Assembly (NCBI GenBank): GCA_039818205.1
Contig: JBCBUK010000003.1
Span: 64,001 to 128,000, forward strand
Direction of reading: 5' to 3'
DNA from: Verrucomicrobiota bacterium
Lineage (GTDB): Bacteria > Verrucomicrobiota > Verrucomicrobiia > Opitutales > Cerasicoccaceae
Length of the DNA: 64,000 bases
Position 1 is the first letter of the stretch. Every line of letters starts with the position of its first letter. Positions 13,773-49,418 of the stretch are shown here, piece after piece. Under the pieces are notes generated by a model, which was not told where the DNA came from, ran no database searches, and was given only the letters and a program-made list of their open reading frames with translations. The position numbers were made by a program, and so were the translations under genes.

Positions 13773-14822
13773 ATGAAATTCTTTAAACAGAACCCGGTCT
13801 TCAGCGCGATTTTATCGCTGTTTGTCGTGTTGTTCATCGCTGGTCTGGTATTCATCTTTTTGTTGAATGGTCAGGTTGCGAAAGAGCAAAAAGACGTCAA
13901 GCGGGCGGAGTCCAATTTGCGGGCAGCTCTGTCTTTACAGCCAGCCCCGACGGATGAAAACATTCAGGCTGCTGAGAAGAATATCTCTGAGCTCAAGCAA
14001 GTGCTCGAAAAGCAGATTGCCGCCACCGCCGGCAACAAACCAAACCTTCTTTCGTCCAATCCGCCGGCAACCGGCACCGATTTGTTCTTTCAGCTCCAAA
14101 GCTATCGCGATGAGTTGACTCAAGATGCCGAACGCACGGTGCCAATTAACGTCTCCGATGAAGAGCTCGAGGTCATGGAAGAGTTTGGCACTGAAGTTCC
14201 CGGAGTCGAAATCCCCGAAGGCTTCGCATTTGGCTTCAGTCGCTACATCGATTCTGGCGAGCCGCCAGCTGATTCAGCGGTCCCAGTGCTTTTTAAGCAG
14301 AAAGAAATCCTCACCTATGCCCTCCGCAAGCTCCTGAGCACGCGCCCGATTAGTATCGTTTCGGTTGATCGCAGTCCGCTCGAGCTTCCCAAGCCGAAAT
14401 CAAAGGACGAGCGCCAGCAGCTCAACGCCGACGAGTTCAATGTCGGCTCGGAATCGGCCGCAGTTAAGAGCGCAGTCGAAACCATTCCGTTCCGAATCGT
14501 ATTCACTGGATACACCGAGAATCTCCGCAGTTTCCTCAAGCAAATCGAGGAGTTTGAAATACCGCTTGTTGTTCGCTCAGTCGAAGTCACCCCGCTCGAA
14601 GATAGCGTGGTCACCGCAGACAATAGTCGCGGCGGTCGTGGTAACTCGGTCGATGATCTGTTTGGCGGATTTGGCTCTGCGACGCCTGAGTCTGATGCCG
14701 AGCCGGCCGCACCGGCCAAAGATCCTATCGTCGCAGAAAACGAATCTGAATTCACGGTCGTTATCGAATACATCACGGTCACGGTCGCGGGCAAAGACTC
14801 CAAAAAGGAGGACCTGTCGTAA
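13773..14822 (+). CDS. Amuc_1100-like PilO-type protein
   Basis: N-terminal TM helix, coiled coil, FAFGFSRY motif and a PilO-like FRIVFTGYTENLRSFL...LVVRSVEV segment; synteny supports the call. Confidence 0.75.
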   Translation: MKFFKQNPVFSAILSLFVVLFIAGLVFIFLLNGQVAKEQKDVKRAESNLRAALSLQPAPTDENIQAAEKNISELKQVLEKQIAATAGNKPNLLSSNPPATGTDLFFQLQSYRDELTQDAERTVPINVSDEELEVMEEFGTEVPGVEIPEGFAFGFSRYIDSGEPPADSAVPVLFKQKEILTYALRKLLSTRPISIVSVDRSPLELPKPKSKDERQQLNADEFNVGSESAAVKSAVETIPFRIVFTGYTENLRSFLKQIEEFEIPLVVRSVEVTPLEDSVVTADNSRGGRGNSVDDLFGGFGSATPESDAEPAAPAKDPIVAENESEFTVVIEYITVTVAGKDSKKEDLS

Positions 14823-36125: not shown

Positions 36126-36215
36126 GATTGAATGCCGTGACGCTGTCGTAAGCGCGGGCAGATGGCCAAGCAAAAATGGTTCGCCTGGTCGCTGGGTATC
36201 AACATGCTACGGGCC

Positions 36216-37691: not shown

Positions 37692-38332
37692 AAACCGTTG
37701 AGGCTGTTCGGCGCCTCTTCCATTTCTTTCTCGTGTTTGGTTCGGCTCAGATAGGCGTCAAAATCGACGTCAAACAGGACCAAATATGAACCATTTTGCT
37801 GGGCGAGCAGCTGATTGTCTGAGCGAAACAGGTTGTGCTTGAGAAGGGGTTTGTAGTCCTTGCTTGGGTAAGCGTCGGTGGGCAGGGTTCCACGATTCCA
37901 AGTGCCGTCGCCTCGATTTAGGAGAAGGAGCCCATTGCTCTCGGCCTCTGTTAGTCCAGAGCTGCGCTTATAGGCTTCAAAGACTGATTGTCCACGAGCA
38001 TAGACAACGAAAATCAACCACCCGTCGGGGTTGGCGACCGGGCGTTCGCGGTCGTCGAGGACGCGACTACTATAAGCTTTGCCGCCGTCTGCAGTCTTAT
38101 AGTAAAGCACCATTTCGTAGGTATCACTTTCTGGATCCAGGGTGTCTTTGAACGGTGATTTTTTGAAGTGCTGCTCAAAAACTTCGTCATCCAGTAGCTT
38201 TACTGCGCCGCCTTCGGTCAGCAAGCGACGTTCGAGCGTTGAACGGCTATCGCCGACGCGGGCGTTGGCTAGTTGAATACCCAAGCAACAGGCTAGGGCG
38301 ATGACGGATAGACGAGGCAACAAGGATTTCAT
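37688..38332 (-). CDS. Exported hypothetical protein
   Basis: Signal peptide MKSLLPRLSVIALACCLGIQLANA from ATG 38332. No recognisable motif. Confidence 0.7.
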   Translation of the reverse strand: MKSLLPRLSVIALACCLGIQLANARVGDSRSTLERRLLTEGGAVKLLDDEVFEQHFKKSPFKDTLDPESDTYEMVLYYKTADGGKAYSSRVLDDRERPVANPDGWLIFVVYARGQSVFEAYKRSSGLTEAESNGLLLLNRGDGTWNRGTLPTDAYPSKDYKPLLKHNLFRSDNQLLAQQNGSYLVLFDVDFDAYLSRTKHEKEMEEAPNSLNGF

Positions 38333-38401
38333 CCTAAAATCGTAGGTTGAGGATTTGGTGGGAGCAAGCATGCATCCCACGATATTGGGAAGCGCATACC
38401 A

Positions 38402-38430
38402 TTGACTTAATATCACTTCGGGGCTATGTT
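38402..38430 (+). promoter_or_regulatory. Putative sigma70 promoter, probably giving a leaderless mRNA
   Basis: TTGACT-N17-TATGTT, with only 6 nt between the -10 hexamer and ATG 38437. Confidence 0.6.
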
Positions 38431-38436
38431 TACTCC

Positions 38437-38718
38437 ATGCAACCAGCCAAGCATTCACTCGTTCGACTGTGCTTCGGTTATGTGTTGATTGCGCTTTCGA
38501 CGACCTTGTGGTTGATCGCTCCCTGGCCATGGTGGATCCCGGGTCTCGACATCCTGACGCGTGCCCTCGCGGGTTTGTCGCTGATCGCTTCGGCAGAACT
38601 GAGTTTTTACCTCGGCCTATGGGTTCTGGGACCGGGCGAAGCTGAGCATTTTTATCGCTGGGCGCGGTTTAAGCGCGGCTTCCGACGCCTGATGGATTAT
38701 TTGGCGCTCAAATGGTGA
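38437..38718 (+). CDS. Small two-TM membrane protein (resembles 'transporter suffix domain' proteins)
   Basis: 93 aa with two hydrophobic helices, AELSFYLGLWVLG and a basic tail; preceded by a good promoter. Confidence 0.55.
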   Translation: MQPAKHSLVRLCFGYVLIALSTTLWLIAPWPWWIPGLDILTRALAGLSLIASAELSFYLGLWVLGPGEAEHFYRWARFKRGFRRLMDYLALKW

Positions 38719-39317
38719 CGTTGGCGCTGCCAGGAATCCAGATCATCGACGTCTTCGAGCGTGCTCAGCGACATCCCGTGCCAACCCGCTTGGTTGGCTC
38801 GGGTAATTGTTTCATCAAAGACTTTCTCTGTGCTCCAAGGCATGTCCTCGAATAGACTCGGCAGCGTGGCTTTGAGCCCGAGCAAGGTGTAGCCGCCGTC
38901 ACGGGCCGGTCCGATGACGAAGTCTTTCGAATCGAGAAAACGGTCGGCTTCCTGCAGGTACGGCGTGACCAAGCCGGGGCAGTCCGCGCCCATGAGAAAT
39001 ACTTTATGGGCTCCTTGATCCAACGCTCTTTGGGCGGCAGCTATTAGTCGGGCGCCGAGGTCGCCAGCGGGCTGTGCCTGATAGCTATCGGCACCCGGAA
39101 GCCAGGCGCGAAATTCCGCTTCGGCATCGGCCGGTGCATAGTGGATGTTGCGAAGCCAGGATGGGGGCAACTGAGCCCACTGATGTTCGACTAACCGTCG
39201 GTAGATAGCAACGGCTTCATCATTACCGCCTTCTAAATCTGCCGCCAAGCGGGTTTTGACGAGTCCCGGTCGCGGCGCCTTGAGCATCAATGCAACGTGG
39301 GTGGCGGGCTCACTCAA
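38697..39317 (-). CDS. TIGR04282/DUF2064-family arsenosugar-associated transferase
   Basis: Motifs KAPRPGLVKTRL, Q..GDLGARL, GADCP, VIGPARDGGYTLLG, MPWST and DVDD. The likely TTG start at 39317 overlaps the upstream stop codon. Confidence 0.88.
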   Translation of the reverse strand: MSEPATHVALMLKAPRPGLVKTRLAADLEGGNDEAVAIYRRLVEHQWAQLPPSWLRNIHYAPADAEAEFRAWLPGADSYQAQPAGDLGARLIAAAQRALDQGAHKVFLMGADCPGLVTPYLQEADRFLDSKDFVIGPARDGGYTLLGLKATLPSLFEDMPWSTEKVFDETITRANQAGWHGMSLSTLEDVDDLDSWQRQRHHLSAK

Positions 39318-40083
39318 AACGATAGACAAAGTTTGAGAACGGATAGCCACCTTCGGGTTCAGCTAAACCCAGCACCAGGTGGTCAAAGAATGATTTGCTC
39401 GCGGCAAGGTTGCCCTGCAGCTCTTCAATGGGAGTTGGGGTCGTTTGAACGCCATTGGCGTAGTCGACACCAAAACACACGAGCGAGTAGGGGAGCTCCA
39501 ATTCATTGGCGAGAACCGCTTCTGGTCCGCAGGTTTGCGAGATGAAGTCAACGCCGGCCGCTTGAAGCGCTTTGATTTCCGATTTCGTGTTAAACCGTGG
39601 GCCATTTACATGGCCGTATACGCCCTCGGAAGCTGCCTGCATGGATTGCCCTTCGGCCAGGGATTGGATCGCCGCATTGAGCGAATGGTTCACCAGGCTT
39701 TCAGCGAGAAGGTGGCCACGAGCGGGATCACCCGCTTGGTCGAAAATGGTGCAAATCTCGCCGCTCGACAATCGATTGTCGGGAAAATGGATGTCTTTAG
39801 CCACTAGTGGCTGCCCCAGGGGGAGGTTTGGGTCCAGAATCCCAACCACGGAAAGCGAAACGATGGCAGTGGCTCCGGCTTGCTTCAGGGCAACAAGGTT
39901 AGCCTGGTGGTTGATGTGGTTCGGAAGATTTGTATGCTGTGCGCCATGACGGGGAAGCAACAGGGCTTTCCGGTCACCGATCGTGCCCGCCAGGAATTGC
40001 GCCTCACCAAAAGGCGTTTCCACATACTGAACATCCAAACCGGCAAAATCGTAGAAGCCGGATCCCGTAATGAATGCGATCAT
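39310..40083 (-). CDS. MTAP-family purine nucleoside phosphorylase
   Basis: Motifs ITGSG, ETPFG, PRHG..H..P..INHQAN, GPRFNTKSE, T..PEA.LA.EL and VDY. Confidence 0.88.
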   Translation of the reverse strand: MIAFITGSGFYDFAGLDVQYVETPFGEAQFLAGTIGDRKALLLPRHGAQHTNLPNHINHQANLVALKQAGATAIVSLSVVGILDPNLPLGQPLVAKDIHFPDNRLSSGEICTIFDQAGDPARGHLLAESLVNHSLNAAIQSLAEGQSMQAASEGVYGHVNGPRFNTKSEIKALQAAGVDFISQTCGPEAVLANELELPYSLVCFGVDYANGVQTTPTPIEELQGNLAASKSFFDHLVLGLAEPEGGYPFSNFVYRFE

Positions 40084-40086
40084 GGC

Positions 40087-41244
40087 CTAGCAGCAAGATC
40101 CGCCACCACCTTCGCAGCAGCTGGATGCATCATTGGTCGCCTGGTAATCTCGGCCCTTGGTTTCCCGAGGATCGCGTCGCTGATCCGGCGCAGAATCAAA
40201 TGGTTTCGCTACCTGAGGATCAATGATCTGCCGTGGCTCAATAAATTCGAAATTACCGGCATAGGGAGATTGTTGGAGAAGCTGAAAGGTTTTGTCGCAG
40301 ACTGCTTGGCGGACGCCGCGCAGGTAGCAATGGTTGTCATCGTCGTAGACCTCACTAAAAGGCCCCTTGTAGATTACTGCTTGATTGCAGTCCCAGCACT
40401 CACCCTGTTTGCCCTTGAATGCACGCAGGGTCATGGAGCGGAATTCGATCCCCTGCACCGTGCGCCAGGGTTCTTGGTCGAGCTTGAGGATCTCGATCCC
40501 GTAAAAGCCAGCGTCTTCAAATGCCTGGATAAAATCTTCTTCAGTCATGGCTCCCGAAATGCAGCCACTCCACAGATCGGGGTCTTGCTGCATCTCTTCC
40601 GGGACGGGCTCATCGGCAACGATGTCAGAAATCACCGCCCGGCCACCAAGCTTTAGGACTCGGAAAATCTCTTCAAATAGCTGTCGCTTCTCGCGGCCTT
40701 CGACAAGGTTGAGTACGCAATTGGAAACCACGACATCGACCGAATCGTCTTCGATCAGCGGCTGCTTCGTGCGAATGCTTTCCGCTACCTCGTTGAGTGC
40801 CTCGTATTGGGACAAGCTGGTGATGGGGCGCTCCTTGAGCTCTTGATCAAGTGTCTTGAGGTCCAACTTAAGGTCCTGGATGCGGCCCTTGCGAAACTCA
40901 ACGTTTGCGTATCCGAGCTTCTCAGCGATGACTGGAGCATTACGGTTGGCAACCTCGAGCATGTCGTCGGTCATGTCGACGCCGATTACTCGGCCCTCTG
41001 GCCCGACTACTTGAGAGGCAATGAAACAGATCTTTCCGGCGCCGGATCCCAGATCGAGCACGGTTTCTCCAGGCTGCACGTAGCGGGACGGATCGCCGCA
41101 GCCGTAGTCCTTAGCGATCACTTCTTCGGGGATAATCTCCAAATACTTCGGATCATAGTTTACTGGGCAGCAGAGCGCTTGCTCGCGCTCTTTGGCGGCC
41201 TCAGCGTAGCGGTTCATTACAGATGTTTGAGTATTCATTGCCAT
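40087..41244 (-). CDS. arsM: Arsenite S-adenosylmethionine methyltransferase (long AS3MT/ArsM type)
   Basis: Motifs LCCP, YGCG, VLDLGSGAG, SNCVLNL, WSGCISGA and a C-terminal CC...CC tail. The start is ATG 41244 or 41238. Confidence 0.88.
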   Translation of the reverse strand: MAMNTQTSVMNRYAEAAKEREQALCCPVNYDPKYLEIIPEEVIAKDYGCGDPSRYVQPGETVLDLGSGAGKICFIASQVVGPEGRVIGVDMTDDMLEVANRNAPVIAEKLGYANVEFRKGRIQDLKLDLKTLDQELKERPITSLSQYEALNEVAESIRTKQPLIEDDSVDVVVSNCVLNLVEGREKRQLFEEIFRVLKLGGRAVISDIVADEPVPEEMQQDPDLWSGCISGAMTEEDFIQAFEDAGFYGIEILKLDQEPWRTVQGIEFRSMTLRAFKGKQGECWDCNQAVIYKGPFSEVYDDDNHCYLRGVRQAVCDKTFQLLQQSPYAGNFEFIEPRQIIDPQVAKPFDSAPDQRRDPRETKGRDYQATNDASSCCEGGGGSCC

Positions 41245-41251
41245 GTCTAAA

Positions 41252-42238
41252 CTAGTTGAGTGCTCCGCCACACGACGAACCGGCTCCAGCCGTGCAGCCG
41301 AAGCAGTGGGGGCCCGTTGCAATGGGACGCGAGAAGTCTTTTTCGGTGATGTCCCAAACGCGCGGCGGTGAGTCTCCAGCCCAGATCATGCCAAGCTGTT
41401 GATTAAAGTCACAATCGTAAACATATCCCTGCCAATCAATGCTTAATGTATCGCGGCACATGAGGTGGTTTACCGAGCCCGGGTTAAAATTATCCACCAG
41501 GAGCTTCATATAGTCCGCGAGTTGTCCCTGCCGCTTTAGCCAGGAGGCAAATCGGGCAATTGGCATATTGGTGATGGTGTAGAGCTGGTGAAACTCGATC
41601 CCGAAGTGTTTTTTCAATTCCGTTTTGTAGTCGGCTTCGAGTTCGGCCTGATCGGGTGGTAGGGACGCGCCCACGGGATTGTAGACCAGATTCAGGGGCA
41701 GAGCATCATCGATTCCGTAGCCCAAGGAGTTCAAGAGCTGAAGGGCTTTGATGCTGCCGTCGAAGACGCCATCGCCGCGCTGGGCGTTAACATTGTCCGG
41801 AGAATAACAGGGCATTGAAGCGGTGATCTCGACGCGGTTTTGCGCCATAAATTCCGCAAGTCCCTCATAGCCAGGCTCCAACAGGATCGTTAAATTGCAG
41901 CGATCGATAATGCGGCGTTGGGCATCCTGAGCCCTAAGCGTTTCGATCAGGTAGCGGAAATCCGGGATCATCTCGGGGGCACCTCCCGTGAGGTCGACGA
42001 TTGGTAGGGGAAACTTTTCCAGCCATCCCAATAGGCCGTCAACCGTTTCCCGAGTCATAATTTCTTTCCGACTGGGGCCCGCATTCACATGGCAATGGAT
42101 GCAGGTGAGATTGCACAATCGGCCAACGTTAACCTGTAAGGTAGTTGGCTGGGAGCGGACGAGCTCCTGACCCGCGGCTCTCAGCGCCGCAAGGAAATTT
42201 GGCGCCGGTCTTTCGGCTATCTTCGTGTCATTTAGCAT
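41252..42238 (-). CDS. arsS: Arsenosugar biosynthesis radical SAM protein (TIGR04167 type)
   Basis: LQVNVGRLCNLTCIHCHVNAGP (CxxxCxxC), DLTGGAPE, LMCR, YDCDFNQ and the C-terminal HCFGCTAGAGSSCGG. Confidence 0.93.
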   Translation of the reverse strand: MLNDTKIAERPAPNFLAALRAAGQELVRSQPTTLQVNVGRLCNLTCIHCHVNAGPSRKEIMTRETVDGLLGWLEKFPLPIVDLTGGAPEMIPDFRYLIETLRAQDAQRRIIDRCNLTILLEPGYEGLAEFMAQNRVEITASMPCYSPDNVNAQRGDGVFDGSIKALQLLNSLGYGIDDALPLNLVYNPVGASLPPDQAELEADYKTELKKHFGIEFHQLYTITNMPIARFASWLKRQGQLADYMKLLVDNFNPGSVNHLMCRDTLSIDWQGYVYDCDFNQQLGMIWAGDSPPRVWDITEKDFSRPIATGPHCFGCTAGAGSSCGGALN

Positions 42239-42255
42239 GAGTGGGCAATCTCTTT

Positions 42256-42283
42256 AGCATGTGTGCGTCGCGTTGAAGGTCAA
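42256..42283 (-). promoter_or_regulatory. Putative sigma70 promoter of the arsS-arsM operon
   Basis: The minus strand reads TTGACC-N16-CATGCT, ending 17 nt before the arsS ATG. Confidence 0.4.
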
Positions 42284-42351
42284 TTCCTTGCAAAGTATCT
42301 CCGAACCTGATTTACCTGTAATGAAACCAACGGTGTCGCGACCAATTGGGA

Positions 42352-43083
42352 ATGAAACGCTTCTTAGCATTGCTATTCTTTGCCGCATGGACCTCGCTGA
42401 ACGCCGGGACCCATTCGGACTTGTATAACTCCTATGGTGAGTTGCTGTCCAAATACGTTAAACCATCAGGAGTAGATTATCAATCCTGGGTGGTCAATGA
42501 CGAGGATGTGGACGCGCTTTACGATTTGCTCATGGCGATGTCCATTGTCGACGTCGACTCACTGTCTGATGACGAGCAGCAGGCGTTTTACATCAATTTA
42601 TACAATGCGGCAATGATCCAAGCAGTCTTGGAGAATTATCCGCTTAAGACGGTCACGACGATATTGCCGGGTTTTGGGATTTTCGAAAAGAAATACATCC
42701 AGCTGGGCGACCGCGTATTGTCGCTGAACGAAGTTGAAAAATCGATTTTGTTGGAGCGGTGGGACGAGCCTCGGATTCATTTTGCGGTCAATTGCGCCAG
42801 TGCTAGTTGCCCGCCTTTGCGCAACGAGCCCTTTACCGGCGAAAAGCTGGAAACCCAGCTACAAGAGCAGACCGAACAGTTTGCTGAAACCAAGCATGCT
42901 CTTCGACTCGACCGCAAAAACCGCACTGCCTATGTCAGCTCATTGTTTGATTGGTATGCTGACGACTTTCCCGGTGATTCACCGCTACACTACCTGAACC
43001 GCTACCGTCAGAAATCGATTCCAACTCGCTACAAGGTGAAGTTCATCAACTATGACTGGTCGCTCAACGAAGCCAAAAACTAG
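42352..43083 (+). CDS. Exported DUF547 protein
   Basis: Signal peptide and motifs AFYINLYNA, EPRIHFAVNCASASCPPL, FDWYADDF and YDWSLN. Confidence 0.9.
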   Translation: MKRFLALLFFAAWTSLNAGTHSDLYNSYGELLSKYVKPSGVDYQSWVVNDEDVDALYDLLMAMSIVDVDSLSDDEQQAFYINLYNAAMIQAVLENYPLKTVTTILPGFGIFEKKYIQLGDRVLSLNEVEKSILLERWDEPRIHFAVNCASASCPPLRNEPFTGEKLETQLQEQTEQFAETKHALRLDRKNRTAYVSSLFDWYADDFPGDSPLHYLNRYRQKSIPTRYKVKFINYDWSLNEAKN

Positions 43084-43114
43084 TCTCACGAACCCAAACT
43101 TTTTGTAAGGTCTT

Positions 43115-45418
43115 ATGGCTGCTATTTCTCGCTACTATCACTGGCTCCACGGCAAATGGCCGTCGGGTGCCACCGAAAAAATGCCCAAGATCGCTGAAGA
43201 TGGGCAAACCGACATTCCCGGCGTTCGCGTCGTGGGTGACTTGACCGGTGTTCCTTTGCTCAAGTTCTCCGCCGACACCGGGGCAAAGGCCATCGATGGC
43301 ATCCTCGCCGAAAACGATTTCAAGCCAGGAGACGATCCCGAAGTCTTGGACGTCGCGATCATTGGAGCAGGGGTGTCGGGTATCTCTGCCGCGATCCAAG
43401 CCAAGAAGGCAGGCCTGCGCTACGAGGTGTTTGAATCTCAGGAAAGCTTTTCGACGATCCGGAATTTTCCGCGTCGCAAGCCAATTTACACCTATCCGAC
43501 CAACATGGAGCCGGCGGGCGAAATGCGGTTTCGCGCTGATGTGAAGGAAGATTTGCTCGTTGAGCTCGAAGCGCAGCGCGTTGAGCACGGTATTGAAACA
43601 ACCGTTGGAGAGGTCGACCACGTCGAACACGGTGGAAGCGGCCTTAAGGTCGTTTTCAAGGAGAAGTCAGGCCGTGACCCACAGCGGGCGCAGCGCGTCA
43701 TTGTGGCAATTGGCCGGACGGGTAATTTCCGGAAGCTGAATGTCCCCGGCGAGAATTTGGACAAGGTGTCGAATCGCCTGATTGATGCCCGCGAGTTCAA
43801 GGGGCAAAAGGTGCTCGTCGTTGGCGGTGGAGACTCGGCTTTGGAAGCTGCCATCTCTTTGGCGGAAGAAGGTGCCGAGGTAACGCTCAGCTATCGCAGC
43901 GCCGAGTTCAAACGCCCGAAGCCAGACAATATCGATCGTATTCAGCAGATGGCGAAAGACGGGGAGTTGGCCCTGATGATGCGCTCGAACGTTCAGGATA
44001 TTGGTGAGGAATCAGTCACGATCTGCGATGAGAATGATCAGGACGTTACCAAATCCATTGACCAGGTCTTTATTTTGATTGGCCGTGAGCCACCCTTGGA
44101 TTTTTTCCGGAAGTCGAAAGTTTCCATTATCGGAGAGCTGACGACGAAGAGCATCATTGGGTTGGTCGCCTTCCTGGCGGTGATGACTTTTCTCTACCAC
44201 CTGAAGGCCTACAAGCCATTCCTGGGAATTCCGGGAACGAATCTCTGGCAGGTCTTTTCCGCCAACAAATGGTTCCCATTCAATCTGCCGATTGCAGGGG
44301 GTGATAGCAGTTTCCTGCATGTGATCACCAAGAATGCTGCCAGCGATCCAGGCTTCCTCTTCGCCTTCCTGTACACGATGGTGATCGTCATTTTTGGGGC
44401 AAAGCGGATCAAGCGGCGTAAAACACCGTACGTAACCCGACAGACGCTCACCCTGATGGCGTTTCAGGTGATTCCGTTGTTCATTCTTCCTTACGTGGTG
44501 TTGCCTTGGATGGGGGCGAACGGCTGGTTTACCAGCGGCGGAATTGGTGAGTGGTTTGGCATGACTTTCTTGTCGAACGGCCCCGGAACCACGCCGGACC
44601 AGTATTGGCGGGCCTTCGGGTTTATTCTGGCCTGGCCCTTGTTCATTTACAACGTGTTCACCCCGGGTCCGCTTTGGGGGTGGCTCGTGTTGAGCCTGAT
44701 CCAGACTTTCATCATTATCCCGCTGATTGTTCGTCGCTGGGGGAAGGGTGCCTATTGCGGATGGATTTGCTCCTGCGGCGCGATGGCTGAAACCTTGGGC
44801 GACCAGCATCGACACAAGATGCCCCATGGCCCCAAGGTCAATCGCCTGAACATGATCGGGCAGGCTATCTTGGCGATCGCTTTCCTGCTACTGGCGTTGA
44901 GAGTCGTCGGCTGGGTCGTCCCCAACAACGGATTCAACCAGTTTGTTTCGGGGTTAATCGGGGACAACAGTTTCTTCAGCTACAAGGTCATCATCGACCT
45001 GTGGCTCGCCGGTGCGATTGGCTATGGATTGTATTTTCATTATTCCGGTCGGGTCTGGTGCCGCTTTGCGTGTCCTCTGGCCGCATTGATGCACATTTAC
45101 GCCCGTTTCTCGAAATTCCGCATTTTCGCCGACAAGAAGAAGTGCATCTCGTGTAACGCCTGCACGTCGATTTGCCACCAGGGCATCGATATCATGAATT
45201 TCGCGAACAAGGGGCTTCCCCTGGAGGATCCCGAGTGCGTCCGCTGTTCAGCTTGTGTGCAGGTTTGCCCGACCGGCGTGCTGAATTTCGGACGCTTCGA
45301 CAAGAACGACAAAGCAGTCCTCGAACGCCTTTGGGCCTCGCCGGTGCAGATGCGTGAAGCGGAGATCAGTGCGACGCCGATTGACGATTATTTGTCCCAG
45401 GCAACGAAAAAAGTCTGA
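43115..45418 (+). CDS. Fusion of a TrxB/YpdA-like FAD/NAD(P)H oxidoreductase with a NapH/RdxA-like membrane polyferredoxin
   Basis: GAGVSG (FAD) and GGGDSALE (NAD(P)H), several TM helices, CGWICSCG, WCRFACP, and two 4Fe-4S motifs (CISCNACTSICH, CVRCSACVQVCP). Confidence 0.85.
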   Translation: MAAISRYYHWLHGKWPSGATEKMPKIAEDGQTDIPGVRVVGDLTGVPLLKFSADTGAKAIDGILAENDFKPGDDPEVLDVAIIGAGVSGISAAIQAKKAGLRYEVFESQESFSTIRNFPRRKPIYTYPTNMEPAGEMRFRADVKEDLLVELEAQRVEHGIETTVGEVDHVEHGGSGLKVVFKEKSGRDPQRAQRVIVAIGRTGNFRKLNVPGENLDKVSNRLIDAREFKGQKVLVVGGGDSALEAAISLAEEGAEVTLSYRSAEFKRPKPDNIDRIQQMAKDGELALMMRSNVQDIGEESVTICDENDQDVTKSIDQVFILIGREPPLDFFRKSKVSIIGELTTKSIIGLVAFLAVMTFLYHLKAYKPFLGIPGTNLWQVFSANKWFPFNLPIAGGDSSFLHVITKNAASDPGFLFAFLYTMVIVIFGAKRIKRRKTPYVTRQTLTLMAFQVIPLFILPYVVLPWMGANGWFTSGGIGEWFGMTFLSNGPGTTPDQYWRAFGFILAWPLFIYNVFTPGPLWGWLVLSLIQTFIIIPLIVRRWGKGAYCGWICSCGAMAETLGDQHRHKMPHGPKVNRLNMIGQAILAIAFLLLALRVVGWVVPNNGFNQFVSGLIGDNSFFSYKVIIDLWLAGAIGYGLYFHYSGRVWCRFACPLAALMHIYARFSKFRIFADKKKCISCNACTSICHQGIDIMNFANKGLPLEDPECVRCSACVQVCPTGVLNFGRFDKNDKAVLERLWASPVQMREAEISATPIDDYLSQATKKV

Positions 45419-45494
45419 TTACTAACCCAGCATTGCCGGTGCTTTGATCTTGCTAGGATGGTCGGAAGCCATTCTCTGGACGAATCTTTTCTAA

Positions 45495-46976
45495 ATGGTG
45501 CTATTCTCTCACTTAATCTGGTGGACCTACGGACTGATGTGCTTTTTGCTTTTCGCATACGGCATCAACAGCTACGTCCTGATCGCATTGTTCGGGCGCC
45601 GCAAGCGGTTAGCCCTCGAAGATAATAAGCACCGCGCGGAGCAGTTTACTCAGAAGCTGGACAAAGGCGACGCTCAATGGCCACGGGTCTTGACGCAGTT
45701 GCCGGTCTACAACGAGCTGAATGTCGCTGAGCGTGTAATCCGAGCTGCGGTCGCCATGGAATACCCGGAAGGCTTGCATGAGGTCCAGGTCCTGGACGAC
45801 TCGACCGACGAAACTTGCGGAATGATCGATAAGGTCGTTGAGGAGTTGCAGGCCGAAGGCAAAAACGTGCGGGTGGTTCGTCGGGAGGATCGAGTCGGCT
45901 TTAAGGCAGGCGCATTAAATGAGGGGATGCACCAAAGCGATGCGCCACTGATTGCAATCTTTGACAGCGACTTCGTGCCTAATCCCGACTTTTTGTTGCG
46001 CAGCGTGCCGCAGATTGTTGAGCAGCCGGAAGTTGCTTTGGTGCAAGCGCGGTGGGGTCATCTAAACGATGACGAGTCCTGGTTGACCCGTTCGCTATCG
46101 ATTGGTATCGACGGTCACTTTGCCATCGAGCAACCCGCGCGGGCCTGGAACCAGCTCTACTTGAATTTTAATGGAACCGCCGGGGTGTGGCGCCGTGAAG
46201 CGATCGTTGATGCCGGTGGCTGGGAGGCTGATACGCTTACCGAAGACATGGACTTGTCCTACCGGGCTCAAATGAAAGGCTGGCGGATCCACTATTTGTT
46301 CGACGTCGCAGTACCGGCTGAGTTGCCGAATACCTTCGCCGCGTTCAAGAGCCAGCAGTTTCGTTGGGCCAAGGGATCTATCCAAACGGCGATCAAGCAC
46401 CTGCCTCGGGTGATCAAATCGAACGTGGGCACATTTAAGAAGGTGCAATCGATCTTCCACCTGACGCATTATTACATCCATATTTGCATGCTCTCGCTGG
46501 CTTTGCTGGCTTTGCCACTCCTATTTGCGCAGAACGCCGCACCGAGCCCCTGGGTCTGGATCGTGATCTCCTTACCGATTCTCCTGTCGACCGTTGGGCC
46601 GAGCCTGTTATATGTCGTCAGCCAGTTTGCCATCGATCCGCGGGTCGCCTGGCGGAAGCTTCGTTATTTGCCGGGTCTTATCCTGATTGGTTTTGGCATC
46701 TCGCTTTCAAATGCCCGGGCGGTTGTCGAGGCGCTTATTGGCCGCAAGACGGAGTTCGTGCGAACGCCCAAATGCGGTGTTTCCTCGCTGAAAAAATATA
46801 AGCTACCGAAGAACAGCCTACCTTGGTTTGAGATCCTTTTGGGTGCATACTGCCTTTTCACTTTGGTGTTGGCCTTGAAACTGGATCGTCCGGCATTGGG
46901 ACCGTTCATTCTGGTCTACATTATTGGATACTTGACGGTGGGCGGCTGTAGTTTGATGGAAACCCGGCGTCAGTAA
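45495..46976 (+). CDS. Processive-type GT2 (cellulose-synthase-like, CslA/CslC-like)
   Basis: Motifs QLPVYNE, DDSTD, FKAGAL, FDSDF, FNGTAG, TEDMD and QQFRW (D,D,D,QxxRW), with C-terminal TM helices. Confidence 0.9.
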   Translation: MVLFSHLIWWTYGLMCFLLFAYGINSYVLIALFGRRKRLALEDNKHRAEQFTQKLDKGDAQWPRVLTQLPVYNELNVAERVIRAAVAMEYPEGLHEVQVLDDSTDETCGMIDKVVEELQAEGKNVRVVRREDRVGFKAGALNEGMHQSDAPLIAIFDSDFVPNPDFLLRSVPQIVEQPEVALVQARWGHLNDDESWLTRSLSIGIDGHFAIEQPARAWNQLYLNFNGTAGVWRREAIVDAGGWEADTLTEDMDLSYRAQMKGWRIHYLFDVAVPAELPNTFAAFKSQQFRWAKGSIQTAIKHLPRVIKSNVGTFKKVQSIFHLTHYYIHICMLSLALLALPLLFAQNAAPSPWVWIVISLPILLSTVGPSLLYVVSQFAIDPRVAWRKLRYLPGLILIGFGISLSNARAVVEALIGRKTEFVRTPKCGVSSLKKYKLPKNSLPWFEILLGAYCLFTLVLALKLDRPALGPFILVYIIGYLTVGGCSLMETRRQ

Positions 46977-48979
46977 TGACGCCCGTTGACCAATTGCGTA
47001 ATTGGGTGTTTTGCCTCCTGGCGATTCTGCTCGTTGCGGTCGCATTGGTCTACGGGGAGATTGTGACAGCGTTCGATGCCGAGGGTGTTGCTCGGGTTTG
47101 GATTTATTTCTTGTTGGGGTTGAGCGGGTTTGCGCTGGTGTTCTGTTGGCCGCGACTGACGCCGAAGCGAGAGGTGGCTTTGCTACTCCTTTTGGGCGCT
47201 GTGGTGCGCTTGGCTCTTTTGCCAACAGCACCCTCAGACGACATCCATCGCTACCTATGGGAGGGTAAACTTGTTGCCGATGGCGTGAGCCCGTATGCGG
47301 CCACGGCCGATGACCCCATCTTCGCTGCCTATTTCGATGACCAGTGGGAGCGGATGAACCATCGGGACAAATGGACGGCCTATCCGCCTGGATCGGAACT
47401 CGTGTTCGCGCTGCTGGCAAAAATCAGTTACAGCACAACGGCGTTTAAGTTGGCGTTTATCGGGTTAGACCTGGTGGTTGTCGCCTTGGTGGCTGGCTTG
47501 CTGCACTTTCGATCGCTACCACTTCGCTGGGCTGGCTTCTATGCGTTTAACCCGATTGTGCTCATCTCATTTGCCGGGGAAGGACACTTCGATGTGCTGA
47601 TGATTGCACCCATGGTGGCCGCAGTTCTCGCCTCGGAACATAAGCGGTATTGGTTGGCTTTTGTCCTGTTGGGGATTGCGGTTCAGATGAAGATTTTCGC
47701 GCTCCTGGCGTTACCGTTTCTGATACGCGAGTGCGGATGGAAATACCTCGGTGCATTTATTCTCACGGTGGTGGTCATCTCGATTCCCTTCGCGGCGGAT
47801 ATTGGTAACATGGTCAATGGGCTTTTCCTTTTCGGCTCGGGGCGTAGTTTCAATGGCTTCGTGTATGATACCTGGCTGCGATGGTTTGATTCCCGGACCG
47901 TCGCGAACATCATTACGGCTGTTTTATTTTTGGGCCTCTGCGCATGGCGTTATTTTTCCAAAGCGCGATCCCATTGGGAAGGGGATTGGTATTTCGTTAT
48001 TGGAGCGCTGTTGATTCTTAGTCCGACGGTTCACTTTTGGTACCTGACATGGTTATTGCCCTTTGTCGCGCTACGCCCATCGATCGCGTGGCTTTGCTTT
48101 AGTTTAACCATGGGCGTCTATTTCCTGGTTTGGTCCAACGCCGAGTCGGGAGCGTGGGGCCTTACTCGCTTTGAATCAGGATTAATCTGGGTTCCGTTCT
48201 TGGCACTAGGGATTTATGAATGGACCCACTTTCATCGCAAGAAGGTGGAACGCCGTCGTGATTTTCCTGAAGGCTTGTCGGTTATCATACCGACCTTCAA
48301 TGCGGCCGATCATTTGCCTGACTGCTTGCAGTCGGTTGAAGCATCGAGCACGCCCGCTGAGGAGATCATTGTCGCGGACGGCGGCTCAACCGATAACACT
48401 TTGAACGTGGCTTCGCGAAACGAATGCCAGGTGGTGACGAGCCCGCTCGGGCGGGGAGAGCAGATTGCTGCTGGCTTGGAGCAGGCTAAGTATCGCTATG
48501 TGTTGATCTTGCACGCTGATTGCGTTCTGGGAACGCATGCCATCAAGCGCCTTCATCGACTCCTGAAAGATTCTCCGTTTGTGGTCGGCGGTTCCCTCGG
48601 ACAGCGCTTTAATCGGGCGAGCCCGATGTTGTTGTTTATTGAGGTGCTGAACGAGATTCGGGCAACGGTAGGCAGCGTGTCATTTGGAGATCAGGCGCAG
48701 TTTTTTGACCGTCGCTATCTTTCCAATGAGGCCTACCCGGCGCAGCCTTTGATGGAGGACGTAGAGCTGAGCCTGCGACTTCGTGAGCGGGGCCAGTGTG
48801 CTTATCTGGGTGAGGAGTTGGTCTCGGAAAGCGCGAAATGGCAACGCGTTGGCAGTTGGCAACGGATTGCCTTGGTATTTCGCTTTGTCGCCGTGTACCG
48901 TTGGACGCGGATCTGGTTTCCGGGGAAGGTCGGTGAGCTTAGCCGACGCCTTTACCGTGAGTATTATAGGCAGTCTTGA
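46976..48979 (+). CDS. Fusion of a GT87/DUF2029-like GT-C membrane domain with a TIGR04283-type GT2 domain
   Basis: N-part has SDDIHRYLWEG, YPP, AFNP, GHFD and PTVHFWY. C-part has SVIIPTFN, DGGSTD, GRGEQ, LHAD, FGDQ and PLMEDVE. Coupled to the previous gene by a TAATG overlap. Confidence 0.85.
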   Translation: MTPVDQLRNWVFCLLAILLVAVALVYGEIVTAFDAEGVARVWIYFLLGLSGFALVFCWPRLTPKREVALLLLLGAVVRLALLPTAPSDDIHRYLWEGKLVADGVSPYAATADDPIFAAYFDDQWERMNHRDKWTAYPPGSELVFALLAKISYSTTAFKLAFIGLDLVVVALVAGLLHFRSLPLRWAGFYAFNPIVLISFAGEGHFDVLMIAPMVAAVLASEHKRYWLAFVLLGIAVQMKIFALLALPFLIRECGWKYLGAFILTVVVISIPFAADIGNMVNGLFLFGSGRSFNGFVYDTWLRWFDSRTVANIITAVLFLGLCAWRYFSKARSHWEGDWYFVIGALLILSPTVHFWYLTWLLPFVALRPSIAWLCFSLTMGVYFLVWSNAESGAWGLTRFESGLIWVPFLALGIYEWTHFHRKKVERRRDFPEGLSVIIPTFNAADHLPDCLQSVEASSTPAEEIIVADGGSTDNTLNVASRNECQVVTSPLGRGEQIAAGLEQAKYRYVLILHADCVLGTHAIKRLHRLLKDSPFVVGGSLGQRFNRASPMLLFIEVLNEIRATVGSVSFGDQAQFFDRRYLSNEAYPAQPLMEDVELSLRLRERGQCAYLGEELVSESAKWQRVGSWQRIALVFRFVAVYRWTRIWFPGKVGELSRRLYREYYRQS

Positions 48980-49363: not shown

Positions 49364-49387
49364 TAAGAGCCGGCTAGAAAATTTCAG

Positions 49388-49418
49388 CGGATTGGCTCGA
49401 CGGGCCAGTCCGTTTTTT
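49388..49418 (+). terminator. Terminator-like hairpin between rpoZ and smpB
   Basis: CGGATTGGCTC-GAC-GGGCCAGTCCG (two G-U pairs) followed by T6. Confidence 0.6.

Follow-up and report, generated by a model that had tools for sequence, protein, structure and literature searches.

Enzymes of the ArsS family convert dimethylarsenite, DMAs(III), into DDMAA, a demonstrated activity (PMC13598754). In the arsenosugars known so far, arsenoribose is beta-linked to a glycerol derivative; it also occurs on natural lipids, as arsenosugar phospholipids and phytyl arsenoriboside (PMC10456119). TIGR04282 and TIGR04283 are partner families that NCBIfam assigns to 'arsenosugar biosynthesis'. In the literature that we searched, no functional test was found for TIGR04282, TIGR04283, the GT-C, DUF547 or flavo-FeS proteins, or for any step after DDMAA. 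As an analogy, the closest known logic is the methylthioxylose capping of mycobacterial lipoarabinomannan: the M. tuberculosis enzyme MtxS (Rv0539) produces a 5-methylthio-pentose linked to decaprenyl phosphate, which MtxT (Rv0541c) then moves to the lipoarabinomannan caps (PMC8780516, PMC12088412).

Here we analyze eight genes of a marine verrucomicrobial genome, located in a window that comprises the whole 64,000-nucleotide stretch of DNA studied. The cluster is a genuine, well-supported variant, from Verrucomicrobiota, of the arsenosugar-type gene set built around arsS and arsM, with a hypothetical end product, and its later genes look like the missing late steps of arsenic-sugar synthesis.

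Layout of the locus and family assignments

All eight ORFs of the original prediction were found, and the families, spacing and divergent arrangement claimed for them hold (Table 1). On the minus strand, the arsM ATG follows the arsS stop after 7 nt (read from the DNA) and the ATG of the MTAP-like gene follows the arsM stop after 3 nt (from the coordinates), both as claimed. The 8-nt overlap proposed between the MTAP-like and TIGR04282 genes stands if TIGR04282 starts at TTG 39317, while the DNA shows two other open starts (GTG 39350 and TTG 39329). According to the coordinates, the plus-strand junctions consist of gaps of 31 nt and 76 nt followed by a 1-nt overlap. The 113-nt spacer between the operons was likewise confirmed in the DNA and is the presumed site of both putative promoters. 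A motif search found no sigma-70-like site inside it; an ECF-type motif with 1 mismatch lies at 42244-42269, such matches being no commoner in the window than chance. On one side the cluster borders an ORF of 280 aa that is not conserved, along with genes for Wzy_C, GT9 and exosortase, and on the opposite side smpB.

Table 1. Features of the cluster, with positions in the window and the basis of each assignment.
Feature	Position	Strand	Basis
TIGR04282 (DUF2064)	38697..39317	-	TIGR04282 profile
MTAP-like phosphorylase	39310..40083	-	TIGR01694 profile, below cut-off
ArsM-type methyltransferase	40087..41244	-	NF040538 best model, below cut-off
ArsS radical SAM enzyme	41252..42238	-	TIGR04167
Divergent intergenic spacer, 113 nt	42239..42351		DNA read
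DUF547 protein	42352..43083	+	PF04784
Flavo-FeS membrane protein	43115..45418	+	Pyr_redox_3, YpdA-like, NapH-like, Fer4
BcsA-like membrane GT2	45495..46976	+	PF13641, TIGR03030
GT87 + TIGR04283 fusion gene	46976..48979	+	PF09594, TIGR04283
GT-C (GT87-like) N-terminal domain of fusion	46976..48250	+	PF09594, AF2 model
TIGR04283-type GT2 C-terminal domain of fusion	48275..48901	+	TIGR04283, Glycos_transf_2

Some family calls had to be corrected: the MTAP, ArsM and TIGR04283 scores are all under the curated equivalog cut-offs and GT87 barely passes that of Pfam. ArsS reaches 435.1 bits with TIGR04167 (cut-off 300) and 185.6 bits with DUF3641, and Radical_SAM is matched as well. It carries the motif CNLTCIHC (residue 42) and, in its C-terminal part, cysteines 312, 315 and 323, and is the Cys form, with no selenocysteine. 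For ArsM the best model is NF040538 (338.8 bits, under 500); further matches are to NF008823 (218.1 bits, also sub-cut-off), Methyltransf_31 (108.6 bits) and the 'arsenosugar ArsM' model NF038099 (133.1 bits, under its cut-off of 400). Cysteines are present at 25, 26, 49, 176 and 228 and in a Cys-rich C-terminal tail (CC at 376-377 and 384-385).

The TIGR04282 protein scores 172.1 bits (cut-off 134), with a weak match to the CofC model TIGR03552 (21 bits), PDB matches to 3cgx (E 6.6e-27) and FbiD/CofC 6bwg (E 0.017), and the motifs KAPRPGLVKTRL (residue 13) and DCP (residue 112). With its CofC/MobA-like fold, it is proposed as the candidate nucleotide-activating enzyme for a sugar 1-phosphate. 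The separate GT2 matches PF13641 (99 bits), TIGR03030 (131.2 bits, under the cut-off of 699) and BcsA structures (E 3.7e-25); it has the processive-type motifs DDS 101, DSD 157, TED 249 and QQFRW 287, and hydrophobic segments at the N-terminus and between residues 327 and 485.

In the fusion protein, the N-terminal domain scores 27.2 bits with PF09594 (cut-off 25). Its AF2 model (pLDDT 89.4, pTM 0.90) has PimE 9dm7 as top Foldseek match (E 5.4e-5, TM 0.54/0.61), followed by ALG3, GPI mannosyltransferase I and ALG6. The GT87 domain thus models as a PimE-like GT-C of the polyprenyl-phosphate-sugar-using kind, in agreement with its predicted role as a membrane sugar transferase. Within the SDD motif at residue 87, D89 is invariant among 12 orthologues and S87 and D88 are nearly so. 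The C-terminal domain matches TIGR04283 over residues 434-642 (163.8 bits, just under the cut-off of 182) and Glycos_transf_2 (67.8 bits), and is preceded by a basic linker, RKK...RRR, at residues 421-428. The window has no evident flippase that would serve a lipid-linked sugar. Fusions of GT-C with TIGR04283 are found in the window and in Opitutae loci, and fusions of TIGR04282 with TIGR04283 in several lineages (L068, L096, L158-L160, L162 and L170); together, the two fusion types link the three transferases. Genome G071 has TIGR04283 twice, once fused to TIGR04282 and once to GT-C, which suggests two distinct transfer steps.

The remaining plus-strand genes form the tightest pair of the syntenic clusters, in which DUF547 adjoins the flavo-FeS gene, although the earlier scheme gave them no role. 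The DUF547 protein (PF04784, 97.1 bits) has a hydrophobic, signal-peptide-like N-terminus in 18/18 aligned orthologues, as judged by eye, and a motif H-x4-C-x4-C-P of which H143, C148, C153 and P154 are invariant in these 18. A structure search with its model (pLDDT 92.5) gave no informative PDB match. The flavo-FeS protein combines a TrxR/YpdA-like flavoprotein (residues ~79-340) with a NapH-like membrane polyferredoxin (~345-767). It matches Pyr_redox_3 (115.9 bits), a YpdA-like model (136.8 bits), a NapH-like model (67 bits) and Fer4 domains; its motifs are GAGVSG at 84, CX3CP at 649 and CX2CX2CX3C at 677 and 708, and its hydrophobic segments lie between residues 336 and 602. The putatively secreted DUF547 protein is probably its periplasmic partner. 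Orthologues of the flavo-FeS protein also occur in unrelated contexts (G213, G180, G222 and G174).

The phosphorylase subfamily and distribution across Verrucomicrobiota

The MTAP-like protein reaches 148.9 bits with TIGR01694 (cut-off 274.85) and stays under every NCBIfam MTAP cut-off. Within a fixed set of 251 genomes from the phylum, used for all phyletic counts, orthologues (296-333 bits, 54-62% identity) are confined to three other genomes, G035, G242 and G249, all of them ArsS-positive; in the other 71 genomes with a match, identity does not exceed 41% and the score 105.5 bits. In 4/4 genomes (that of the window and these three) TIGR04282 is preceded directly by this gene. In a metagenome scan, at least one cluster gene adjoins the phosphorylase in 10 of 13 subfamily loci (independent loci are fewer, since L109 and L110 encode identical proteins, as do L112 and L101), against 0/35 loci with a canonical MTAP (257 kb covered). 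The subfamily is a single separate clade (SH-aLRT 99) on a long stem. It retains the residues aligned to the phosphate site (S8, R45, H46, S/T78 and T184) and ends in a conserved (Y/F)RF C-terminus, but has Q, N and A at the positions aligned with human M196, S178 and D222, which belong to the substrate site in MTAP structures. This signature is seen in 27 of 105 aligned representatives (225-300 aa, drawn from the best 150). The phosphorylase is not a stray housekeeping MTAP; its subfamily is a distinct one that goes with ArsS-positive genomes and with TIGR04282. It is, nonetheless, the sole MTAP-family gene in its genome, where a search did not find MtnN, and could do housekeeping work. None of 80 surveyed arsS loci has a match to it, and in three genomes with the full cluster (G141, G150 and G096) neither an MTAP-type enzyme nor MtnN was found, each having one other PNP_UDP_1 member distant from the cluster. 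The general route therefore cannot depend on phosphorolysis by enzymes of this subfamily.

The expected co-occurrence of the plus-strand genes with arsS elsewhere is seen in syntenic clusters of Opitutae and Chthoniobacterales MAGs, and other Verrucomicrobiota share a syntenic cluster of seven of the eight genes. Counted at a query coverage of at least 60%, the 80 arsS loci contain DUF547 (17), TIGR04282 (12), the GT87 domain (12), the FeS half (12), the flavin half (10) and GT2 (7); a TIGR04283-like match is present in 32 of the 80. Five loci (L054, L055, L056, L068 and L082) hold all seven genes besides the phosphorylase. The order is arsS-DUF547-flavoFeS-GT2-GT87::T283-arsM in L054, L055 and L056, and the same with GT2 shifted upstream in L082; TIGR04282 follows convergently. 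In single operons of varying order, arsS and arsM stand interleaved among the module genes. ArsS is present in 13 of the 251 genomes, each of which has TIGR04282, and TIGR04282 in 26. GT87-domain homologues occur in 18 genomes, all TIGR04282-positive, and in 10 of the 13 with ArsS; flavo-FeS homologues occur in 15, all GT87-positive.

The claim of a 'complete' and arsenic-specific system is not borne out by these distributions, as 13 of the 26 TIGR04282-positive genomes are without TIGR04167 ArsS. In five of the latter (G001, G165, G180, G213 and G048; 99-100% complete), a search for ArsM found nothing down to E 1e-10, and one for a variant radical SAM enzyme found only weak generic matches (at most 30.4 bits, in three of the five). 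G001 (100% complete) keeps DUF547-flavoFeS beside GT2-GT87::T283 in one locus without arsS or arsM, and G165, also without both, has DUF547, flavo-FeS, GT2 and GT-C::TIGR04283 spread over two contigs. At least four other 'ArsS-negative' genomes (G071, G104, G176 and G140) carry, within the same cluster, an ArsM-like methyltransferase together with another radical SAM enzyme. Among the controls, the genome of Synechococcus elongatus matches ArsS and TIGR04282 but has no GT87 match, so that the basic gene set can do without GT-C. The TIGR04283 cut-off is passed by 1 of 14 control genomes. On our reading, the activation-and-transfer module would be older and broader than its arsenic use, and where relatives lack ArsS and ArsM it would presumably act on another sugar.

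Proposed pathway and alternatives

Our tentative reading, which we put somewhat short of an even chance, is an arsenosugar-type variant with its own candidate enzymes after DDMAA, ending in a membrane-bound arsenoriboside. By the reactions established for their families, ArsM would methylate As(III) to dimethylarsenite and ArsS would add the 5'-deoxyadenosyl moiety of SAM to give DDMAA. The diverged MTAP-type phosphorylase would then use phosphate to remove adenine, yielding 5-deoxy-5-dimethylarsinoyl-ribose 1-phosphate, and the CofC/MobA-like TIGR04282 would couple this arsenic sugar phosphate to a nucleotide. The TIGR04283 GT2 domain, kept at the cytoplasmic face through its fusion with the membrane domain, would transfer the sugar to polyprenyl phosphate, from which the PimE-like GT-C would move it to a lipid or glycan acceptor at the periplasmic face. 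The BcsA-like GT2 may make this acceptor, and the likely product would be of the arsenosugar-lipid type. The secreted DUF547 protein, with its two invariant cysteines, would form a conserved accessory redox pair with the flavo-FeS membrane protein. ArsS, ArsM and the special phosphorylase would in this way feed an arsenic-bearing ribose into a broader transfer module. Of the ordered pathway originally predicted, the sequence of phosphorylase, activation, lipid loading and transfer outside the membrane fits the gene families, synteny, phosphorylase subfamily, fusions and GT-C model; its completeness and arsenic specificity are not supported.

It might also be argued, though we consider it somewhat unlikely, that the cluster is an arsenic-independent envelope glycosylation and redox module, which stands beside arsS and arsM in some lineages and takes arsenic at most as an occasional substrate. 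Such a module might display 5-methylthioribose or 5-deoxyribose (from MTA or 5'-deoxyadenosine), or an ordinary sugar. The genomes without ArsS, the five without ArsM or a variant radical SAM enzyme and the G001 locus point this way, as do the exosortase, GT9 and Wzy_C envelope genes next to the cluster and the closer tracking of GT87 with TIGR04282 (18/18) than with ArsS (10/13). The mycobacterial precedent sugar, too, carries sulfur and not arsenic. These points are countered by the presence of TIGR04282 in 13/13 ArsS-positive genomes, the interleaved operons, the alternative radical SAM and ArsM-like enzymes in four genomes, and the restriction of the special phosphorylase to ArsS-positive genomes. 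That the true substrate is another metalloid, such as selenium or antimony, is very improbable: the name of the TIGR04167 model records selenoprotein forms of ArsS, but ArsS in the window is of the Cys form, its operon also encodes an ArsM-type methyltransferase that has the usual cysteines, and the demonstrated ArsS activity is on dimethylarsenite.

An unlikely alternative is that ordinary small arsenosugars are made, as in cyanobacteria, with TIGR04283 acting directly on a glycerol, glycerophosphoglycerol or phosphatidylglycerol-type acceptor and the GT-C and BcsA-like GT2 serving an unrelated polysaccharide. The covalent fusion of GT-C to TIGR04283 in the window and Opitutae loci, the restriction of GT-C homologues to TIGR04282-positive genomes and the two TIGR04283 copies of G071 argue against it, even though it agrees with the glycerol ribosides and phospholipid forms already known, with the cyanobacterial control lacking GT87 and with stand-alone TIGR04283 without GT-C being commoner (32/80 against 12/80 arsS loci). 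It is doubtful, finally, that the MTAP-like gene serves only housekeeping salvage of MTA and of 5'-deoxyadenosine (released when ArsS or another radical SAM enzyme cleaves SAM abortively) and does not act on DDMAA. Its sole status in a genome where MtnN was not found, its conserved phosphate-binding residues and the 0/80 arsS loci with a phosphorylase would suit such a role, whereas its distance from canonical MTAPs, the altered substrate-site positions throughout the subfamily, its confinement to ArsS-positive genomes, its coupling to TIGR04282 rather than arsS and the 0/35 result for canonical loci speak against it.

Comparison with known systems

The cyanobacterial ArsM-ArsS pathway is resembled in that the window likewise has ArsS and TIGR04282 above their cut-offs, ArsM and a TIGR04283-type domain. 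In the window, however, ArsM is not of the 'arsenosugar ArsM' type, TIGR04283 is fused to GT-C, and a dedicated phosphorylase, a BcsA-like GT2 and a flavo-FeS membrane protein are added. The phosphorylase has the fold family of human MTAP (1cb0) and P. aeruginosa MTIP (3ozb) (E 7e-23 to 5e-21); compared with the human enzyme, it keeps the phosphate-site residues and differs at the positions of M196, S178 and D222. With PimE, ALG3, ALG6 and GPI mannosyltransferase I the membrane domain has the GT-C fold in common, with a conserved acidic SDD motif after the third N-terminal helix, but it shares only 14-20% identity with them, has two additional N-terminal helices ahead of the motif and is fused to a cytoplasmic GT2. 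As in NapH/NosR polyferredoxins, the flavo-FeS protein has CX3CP, two 4Fe-4S ferredoxin motifs and several membrane helices, and as in YpdA (TrxR-type) it has an FAD/NAD(P)H domain, here without CxxC. In contrast to both, it fuses the two parts, scores far under their cut-offs (67 against 213 and 136.8 against 339.9), and has in window-type clusters a secreted DUF547 protein, not a known reductase, as constant neighbour.

Like the proposed pathway, the MtxS/MtxT system uses a GT2 that loads a 5-substituted 5-deoxy-pentose on polyprenyl phosphate and a membrane transferase that passes it to an envelope glycolipid. Its heteroatom is sulfur instead of arsenic, its sugar is xylo- and not ribo-configured, and it has no radical SAM or ArsM step. 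As Angala et al. reportedly described in 2017, a SAM by-product nucleoside is the source of the mycobacterial methylthio-sugar, an MTAP gene is located close by, and MtxT is a GT-C. The likeness proposed here is one of mechanism, not of membership.

Gene content of the cluster and its ArsM/ArsS front end

Reading the DNA confirmed all eight open reading frames of the cluster, as well as the spacing that had been reported for them: along the minus-strand operon, gaps of 7 nt and 3 nt and then an overlap of 8 nt (given TTG at 39317 as the start of TIGR04282), and a 113-nt spacer between the divergent operons. The family labels of the original prediction were recovered with Pfam and NCBIfam, but the matches for MTAP, ArsM and TIGR04283 lie below their curated cut-offs and that for GT87 passes narrowly. 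It is an example of the arsS/arsM 'arsenosugar-type' gene set, which already carries NCBIfam labels. The genome assembly measures 4.85 Mb and is 99.97% complete, and the labels of its closest ArsS relatives place it in the Verrucomicrobiota. The single sequencing run listed for the stretch is a DNA run, possibly its source, labelled as a marine metagenome; no RNA run is listed for the cluster.

Features of the window and of the compared loci (L, fetched loci; G, coded genomes of the phylum sample)
Locus	Position	Strand	Feature
window	33407-37691		first exosortase (EpsH) region, with DUF3485
window	37688-38530		280-aa ORF, rejected as ninth gene
window	38697-39317	-	TIGR04282
window	39310-40083	-	MTAP-like phosphorylase
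window	40087-41244	-	ArsM
window	40087-40140	-	Cys-rich tail of ArsM
window	41252-42238	-	ArsS
window	42244-42269	+	ECF-like site GGCAAT-N16-CGTC
window	42352-43083	+	DUF547
window	43115-45418	+	flavo-FeS
window	45495-46976	+	BcsA-like GT2
window	46976-48979	+	GT87 (GT-C)::TIGR04283 fusion
window	49386-49414	+	hairpin plus T-run
window	57718-59277		second exosortase (EpsH)
L054	3631-4074		PEMT/ICMT-family membrane methyltransferase
L088 (G165)	3001-4554		DUF6503 fused to DUF547
L104 (G141)	13711-14514		weak DUF6503 protein
L110	8592-8975		DoxX membrane protein
L110	10632-11885		Amidohydro_3 protein
L158 (G071)	1468-2400		variant radical SAM protein
L159 (G104)	2474-3472		variant radical SAM protein
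L160 (G140)	10088-13234	-	radical SAM + ArsM-like methyltransferase + DUF5714
L162 (G176)	1565-2497		variant radical SAM protein
L170 (G080)	13716-14573	-	canonical-type MTAP

The neighbours of the cluster are, on one side, a 280-aa ORF that is not conserved together with the envelope genes Wzy_C, GT9 and exosortase, and on the other side smpB. The 280-aa ORF was rejected as a ninth gene, having no Pfam family and no tblastn match in the loci searched. Two exosortase genes are present in the window, the first of which, immediately preceding the cluster, neighbours GT9 and an O-antigen-ligase-like gene with Wzy_C. An ECF-type motif (GGGAAT-N16-CGTC, one mismatch allowed) matched three times in the window against 5.7 expected, which is not significant; one of the three, with a single mismatch, falls within the divergent spacer at a distance of about 80 nt upstream of DUF547. 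Scans for sigma-70 promoters and terminators across the cluster performed no better than on shuffled sequence. The strongest hairpin followed by a T-run in the region scanned has 13 pairs, of which 7 are G-C. Positioned after the plus-strand operon and before smpB, it is a possible terminator of that operon, with terminator-like sites overall not exceeding shuffled sequence.

ArsS clears the curated TIGR04167 cut-off over the whole protein (435.1 bits against 300) and carries a CX3CX2C radical SAM motif (CNLTCIHC at residue 42), a DUF3641 C-terminal domain (185.6 bits) and cysteines 312, 315 and 323 near the C-terminus. ArsM passes none of the NCBIfam equivalog cut-offs (338.8 bits against 500 for NF040538, 218.1 against 263 for NF008823), and the 'arsenosugar ArsM' model NF038099 yields 133.1 bits against a cut-off of 400; judged by its best matches it is a predicted ArsM-family member outside every curated subtype. 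Its cysteines 25/26, 49, 176 and 228 lie within the motifs LCC, YGCG, SNCV and SGCI and are putative counterparts of the As-binding cysteines of characterised ArsM. At its C-terminus the protein has a Cys-rich tail (CC at residues 376-377 and 384-385); methyltransferases do not usually have one, and a metalloid might bind there. For the ArsS family, adenosylation of dimethylarsenite to 5'-deoxy-5'-dimethylarsinoyl-adenosine (DDMAA) has been described (PMC13598754), and the ArsM/ArsS enzymology leading to this product is published (PMC13598754; work cited in PMC12159101). By family enzymology, the best-supported reading is that ArsS and ArsM of the window would form a front end making DDMAA.

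The 80 top-ranking arsS loci of species-representative genomes (nearly all labelled Verrucomicrobiota, three labelled otherwise) were searched with all eight window proteins, counting matches at a query coverage of at least 60%. Many of these loci are short, and counts for the 35 flanked by 8 kb or more in both directions are given in brackets: ArsM was found in 35 loci (16), TIGR04283-like in 32 (17), DUF547 in 17 (8), TIGR04282 in 12 (7), the GT87 domain in 12 (5), the FeS half in 12 (7) and the flavin half of the flavo-FeS protein in 10 (6), GT2 in 7 (4) and the MTAP-like protein in none (0). All seven non-phosphorylase genes are present in five loci (L054, L055, L056, L068 and L082). The first three, of Opitutae/Puniceicoccaceae type, have the order arsS-DUF547-flavoFeS-GT2-GT87::T283-arsM in common (T283, TIGR04283; ::, fusion); L082 has the same gene set with GT2 moved upstream of arsS, and TIGR04282 follows convergently in all four. 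The plus-strand genes do co-occur with arsS elsewhere, as had been anticipated, and they do so in conserved syntenic clusters. Consequently, the window contains a rearranged copy of a conserved cluster plus one extra gene. In L054, from a Coraliomargarita-labelled MAG, a small membrane methyltransferase is located between arsS and DUF547; it is notable in that algae are known to contain a 2-O-methyl arsenoriboside lipid (PMC10456119).

A phosphorylase subfamily coupled to TIGR04282

The extra gene encodes the MTAP-like protein, which scores below the curated TIGR01694 cut-off (148.9 against 274.85 bits) and likewise below those of the other MTAP/MTIP models. It is the only MTAP-family gene in the window's genome, and MtnN was not found there. 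Within a fixed sample of 251 genomes, drawn evenly from the phylum, hits occur in 75, of which only G035, G242 and G249 are of orthologue grade (296-333 bits, 54-62% identity); all other genomes with hits stay at or below 41% identity and 105.5 bits. These three are all among the 13 ArsS-positive genomes of the sample. In each of them and in the window's own genome (4/4) the MTAP-like gene is placed immediately upstream of TIGR04282, the operon order in G249 being DUF547-arsS-arsM-flavoFeS-MTAP-like-TIGR04282.

A metagenome scan with a four-sequence profile of the subfamily points in the same direction: at least one cluster gene (TIGR04282, TIGR04283-like, DUF547, flavo-FeS, arsS or arsM) sits beside the phosphorylase in 10 of the 13 subfamily loci (48-67% identity), against none of 35 control loci with canonical MTAP (257 kb), where the independent subfamily loci number fewer than 13 owing to identical proteins in L109/L110 and in L112 and the G249 gene. 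In a quick maximum-likelihood tree the subfamily, with 13 rows, comes out as a single clade on a long stem (SH-aLRT 99), a cohesion that is partly built in, as the subfamily was chosen by identity to the query.

Alignment to MTAP structures in the PDB places S8, R45, H46, S78 and T184 at the phosphate-site positions (T18, R60, H61, T93 and T197 in the human enzyme), and these are kept across the subfamily; D207, at the position of human D220, is kept as well. Human M196, S178 and D222 are replaced by Q183, N165 and A209, on which the four orthologues agree. The functional roles of the human phosphate- and substrate-site residues follow the MTAP structure literature. A search of 1.84 billion representatives returned 38 proteins at an E-value of 1e-30 or better. 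Among 105 aligned representatives of 225-300 aa, drawn from the best 150 matches, Q occupies the M196 position in 27 and M in 73, and the Q carriers mostly show all of the signature (F-N, S-Q-T, D-x-A-N, and (Y/F)RF at the C-terminus). We consider this subfamily the strongest new support for the first putative step after DDMAA, its phosphorolysis.

In the ArsS-positive genome G080 a gene row opens with a canonical-type MTAP, which is 32% identical to the window's and falls outside the special clade, and continues with DUF547, VTT, a flavoprotein and TIGR04282::TIGR04283; here the module would have recruited an MTAP-family gene a second time, independently. In the metagenome cluster L110 a DoxX membrane protein is inserted between flavo-FeS and the MTAP-like gene, and the Amidohydro_3 protein that comes after TIGR04282 could be a candidate nucleoside or base deaminase. 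Three genomes with a full arsS cluster (G141, G150 and G096) yielded neither an MTAP-type enzyme nor MtnN; each has a single other PNP_UDP_1 member, on a different contig from the cluster. The phosphorylase step is not universal among arsS clusters.

Glycosyltransferases, DUF547 and the membrane flavin reductase

TIGR04282 of the window scores above its curated cut-off (172.1 against 134 bits) and matches PDB entry 3cgx at E 6.6e-27. Its likeness to CofC/MobA is remote (21 bits to TIGR03552; E 0.017 to FbiD, 6bwg), and its homologue in G189 has NTP_transf_3 and CofC matches. The TIGR04283 domain reaches 163.8-167.1 bits, below the cut-off of 182, and is the best TIGR04283 match in the genome, as a diverged domain within a fusion. 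TRANSFERASES linked by fusion: TIGR04282::TIGR04283 proteins occur in L068, L096 (genome G189), L158, L159, L160, L162 and L170, TIGR04283::GT-C proteins in the window and in Opitutae loci, and G071 has both kinds of fusion within one cluster. Together with the coupling of the phosphorylase to TIGR04282, these fusions give exactly the order (phosphorylase, TIGR04282, TIGR04283, GT87) that had been proposed for the pathway.

The GT87 Pfam match of the GT-C domain passes narrowly (27.2-35.2 bits against a cut-off of 25). A sequence search of the PDB with the fusion protein matched the GT2 half alone, so that assignment of the GT-C half needed a route through its fold. The first 425 residues, modelled with 12 orthologues, gave a multi-helix GT-C fold (pLDDT 89.4, pTM 0.90), for which Foldseek ranked PimE at the top, followed by ALG3, GPI mannosyltransferase I and ALG6. 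These are GT-C enzymes with polyprenyl or dolichyl phosphate sugar donors, and we infer from these fold neighbours that the window's domain would use a polyprenyl-phosphate sugar donor. An SDD motif (residues 87-89) after the third helix has D89 invariant and S87 and D88 nearly so among the 12 orthologues; it would lie in an early loop on the predicted extracytoplasmic side. The linker from GT-C to the GT2 domain is strongly basic, which fits a cytoplasmic location of the latter. The separate BcsA-like GT2 has the motifs DDS (101), DSD (157), TED (249) and QQFRW (287) and hydrophobic segments over residues 327-485. BcsA structures match it at E 3.7e-25, with every curated model below its cut-off; it could make a polymer or glycolipid acceptor.

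DUF547 (97.1 bits) has a hydrophobic, signal-peptide-like N-terminus in all 18 aligned orthologues, as read by eye from the alignment, in which C148 and C153 are invariant. Its constant neighbour is a membrane flavin reductase, either the flavo-FeS protein, in which a flavoprotein and a NapH-like polyferredoxin are fused, or VTT/DedA combined with a flavoprotein of the disulfide-reductase type. The DUF547 model is confident (pLDDT 92.5); Foldseek found nothing better than E 1.3 in the PDB, among 48,161 chains compared by VIA-align the best Z was 6.1, to generic helical proteins, and the protein atlas returned DUF547 clusters only, so that the structure gave no clue to function. Orthologues of flavo-FeS are found in unrelated gene contexts as well. 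DUF547 and the membrane flavin reductase would constitute a redox pair acting across the membrane. DUF6503, which has no counterpart in the window, is seen as a weak match between DUF547 and arsS in G141 and as a fusion to DUF547 in one 517-aa protein of G165.

Arsenic specificity, proposed pathway and known systems

In the phylum sample the gene families form nested sets, which are to be read as patterns and not as statistics because kin are not independent: ArsS is found in 13 of the 251 genomes, all TIGR04282-positive; TIGR04282 in 26, half of which (13/26) have TIGR04167 ArsS; GT87-domain homologues in 18, all with TIGR04282; and flavo-FeS homologues in 15, all with a GT87-domain homologue. 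Going by this nesting, ArsS depends on the module, whereas the module can do without ArsS. Four of the 13 TIGR04167-negative carriers (G071, G104, G176 and G140) combine a different radical SAM enzyme with an ArsM-like methyltransferase and probably are functional equivalents. In the first three the radical SAM protein (310-332 aa) is located between DUF547 and the ArsM-like gene (L158, L162) or just upstream of the latter (L159), with no DUF3641 in the two scanned (L158 and L159), and may represent an uncatalogued ArsS-equivalent family; their clusters also contain DUF547, VTT/DedA, a TIGR04282::TIGR04283 fusion and a flavoprotein of about 510 aa, which is a pyridine-nucleotide disulfide oxidoreductase. 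G140 has radical SAM, ArsM-like methyltransferase and DUF5714 domains in one ORF of 1,048 aa, directly beside a TIGR04282::TIGR04283 protein.

Five further carriers (G001, G165, G180, G213 and G048; 99-100% complete) have no match to ArsM, and the variant radical SAM enzyme gave generic hits of at most 30.4 bits in three of them and none in two. Even so, DUF547-flavoFeS adjoins GT2-GT87::T283 in G001 despite the missing ArsS and ArsM matches; in G165 the same genes are split over two contigs, and in G180 and G213 a GT87-domain protein adjoins TIGR04282. The downstream module is not arsenic-exclusive. Among the controls, Synechococcus elongatus is positive for ArsS and TIGR04282 and negative for GT87, and the TIGR04283 cut-off is passed by 1 of 14 genomes. 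As half of the TIGR04282 carriers in the phylum sample are without ArsS, the database label 'arsenosugar biosynthesis glycosyltransferase' on TIGR04282 and TIGR04283 overstates what is known, and we regard this negative result on arsenic specificity as no less important than the positive one.

The ordered pathway of the original prediction gains several independent genomic links, but has to accommodate a module that serves more than arsenic and a phosphorylase that some clusters do without. With its downstream steps derived from the genes, it is the best available reading: DDMAA made by the ArsM/ArsS front end would be converted to an activated arsenoribose by the dedicated phosphorylase and TIGR04282, loaded onto a lipid carrier by TIGR04283, and handed by GT-C to an acceptor at the inner membrane's outer face. 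Its end product could be a surface glycan, as was suggested at first, or a membrane-bound arsenoriboside. PimE, the nearest fold of the GT-C domain, glycosylates a membrane glycolipid. Natural arsenoribose has been found on phospholipids and on phytol (PMC10456119). On these two grounds we favour the membrane-bound arsenoriboside. A more complete version of the pathway is put forward tentatively, and we think it rather doubtful as a whole: in marine heterotrophic Verrucomicrobiota, a Q-type MTAP phosphorylase and the CofC-like TIGR04282 would turn DDMAA into polyprenyl-phosphate-linked 5-dimethylarsinoyl-ribose, which a PimE-like GT-C would pass on to an outer-face lipid or glycan to give an arsenic-decorated envelope, while DUF547 and flavo-FeS, as a trans-membrane redox pair, would tend an arsenic/thio centre outside the cytoplasm.

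In marine food webs organic arsenic is present mainly as arsenosugars and arsenosugar lipids, and to our knowledge only the first two enzymes of their synthesis, ArsM and ArsS, have assigned functions. A full-text literature search, with most subscription journals outside its reach, found no enzyme assignment for any step after DDMAA. The window locus and its relatives provide concrete candidates for each later step, so that these long-open parts of arsenosugar and arsenolipid synthesis become directly testable. The sharpest candidate is the small phosphorylase subfamily, with its altered substrate-site residues and its restriction to ArsS-positive genomes in the phylum sample. The fusion of a GT2, predicted to be of polyprenyl-phosphate type, to GT-C suggests that heterotrophic marine bacteria, which as far as we know are not usually counted as arsenosugar producers, carry arsenic linked to lipids or bound to the envelope. 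If the complete version were true, all steps after DDMAA would be enzymatically assigned for the first time.

The closest known mechanism is the mycobacterial capping with methylthioxylose (MTX), to which the cluster would be analogous in mechanism. The MTX sugar is said, by Angala et al. in 2017, to be derived from methylthioadenosine, with an MTAP gene reportedly nearby. MtxS (Rv0539) forms a decaprenyl-phosphate-linked 5-methylthio-pentose, which MtxT (Rv0541c) transfers to lipoarabinomannan caps (PMC8780516; PMC12088412). If our tentative reading is true, the cluster described here would be the arsenic counterpart of this capping system.
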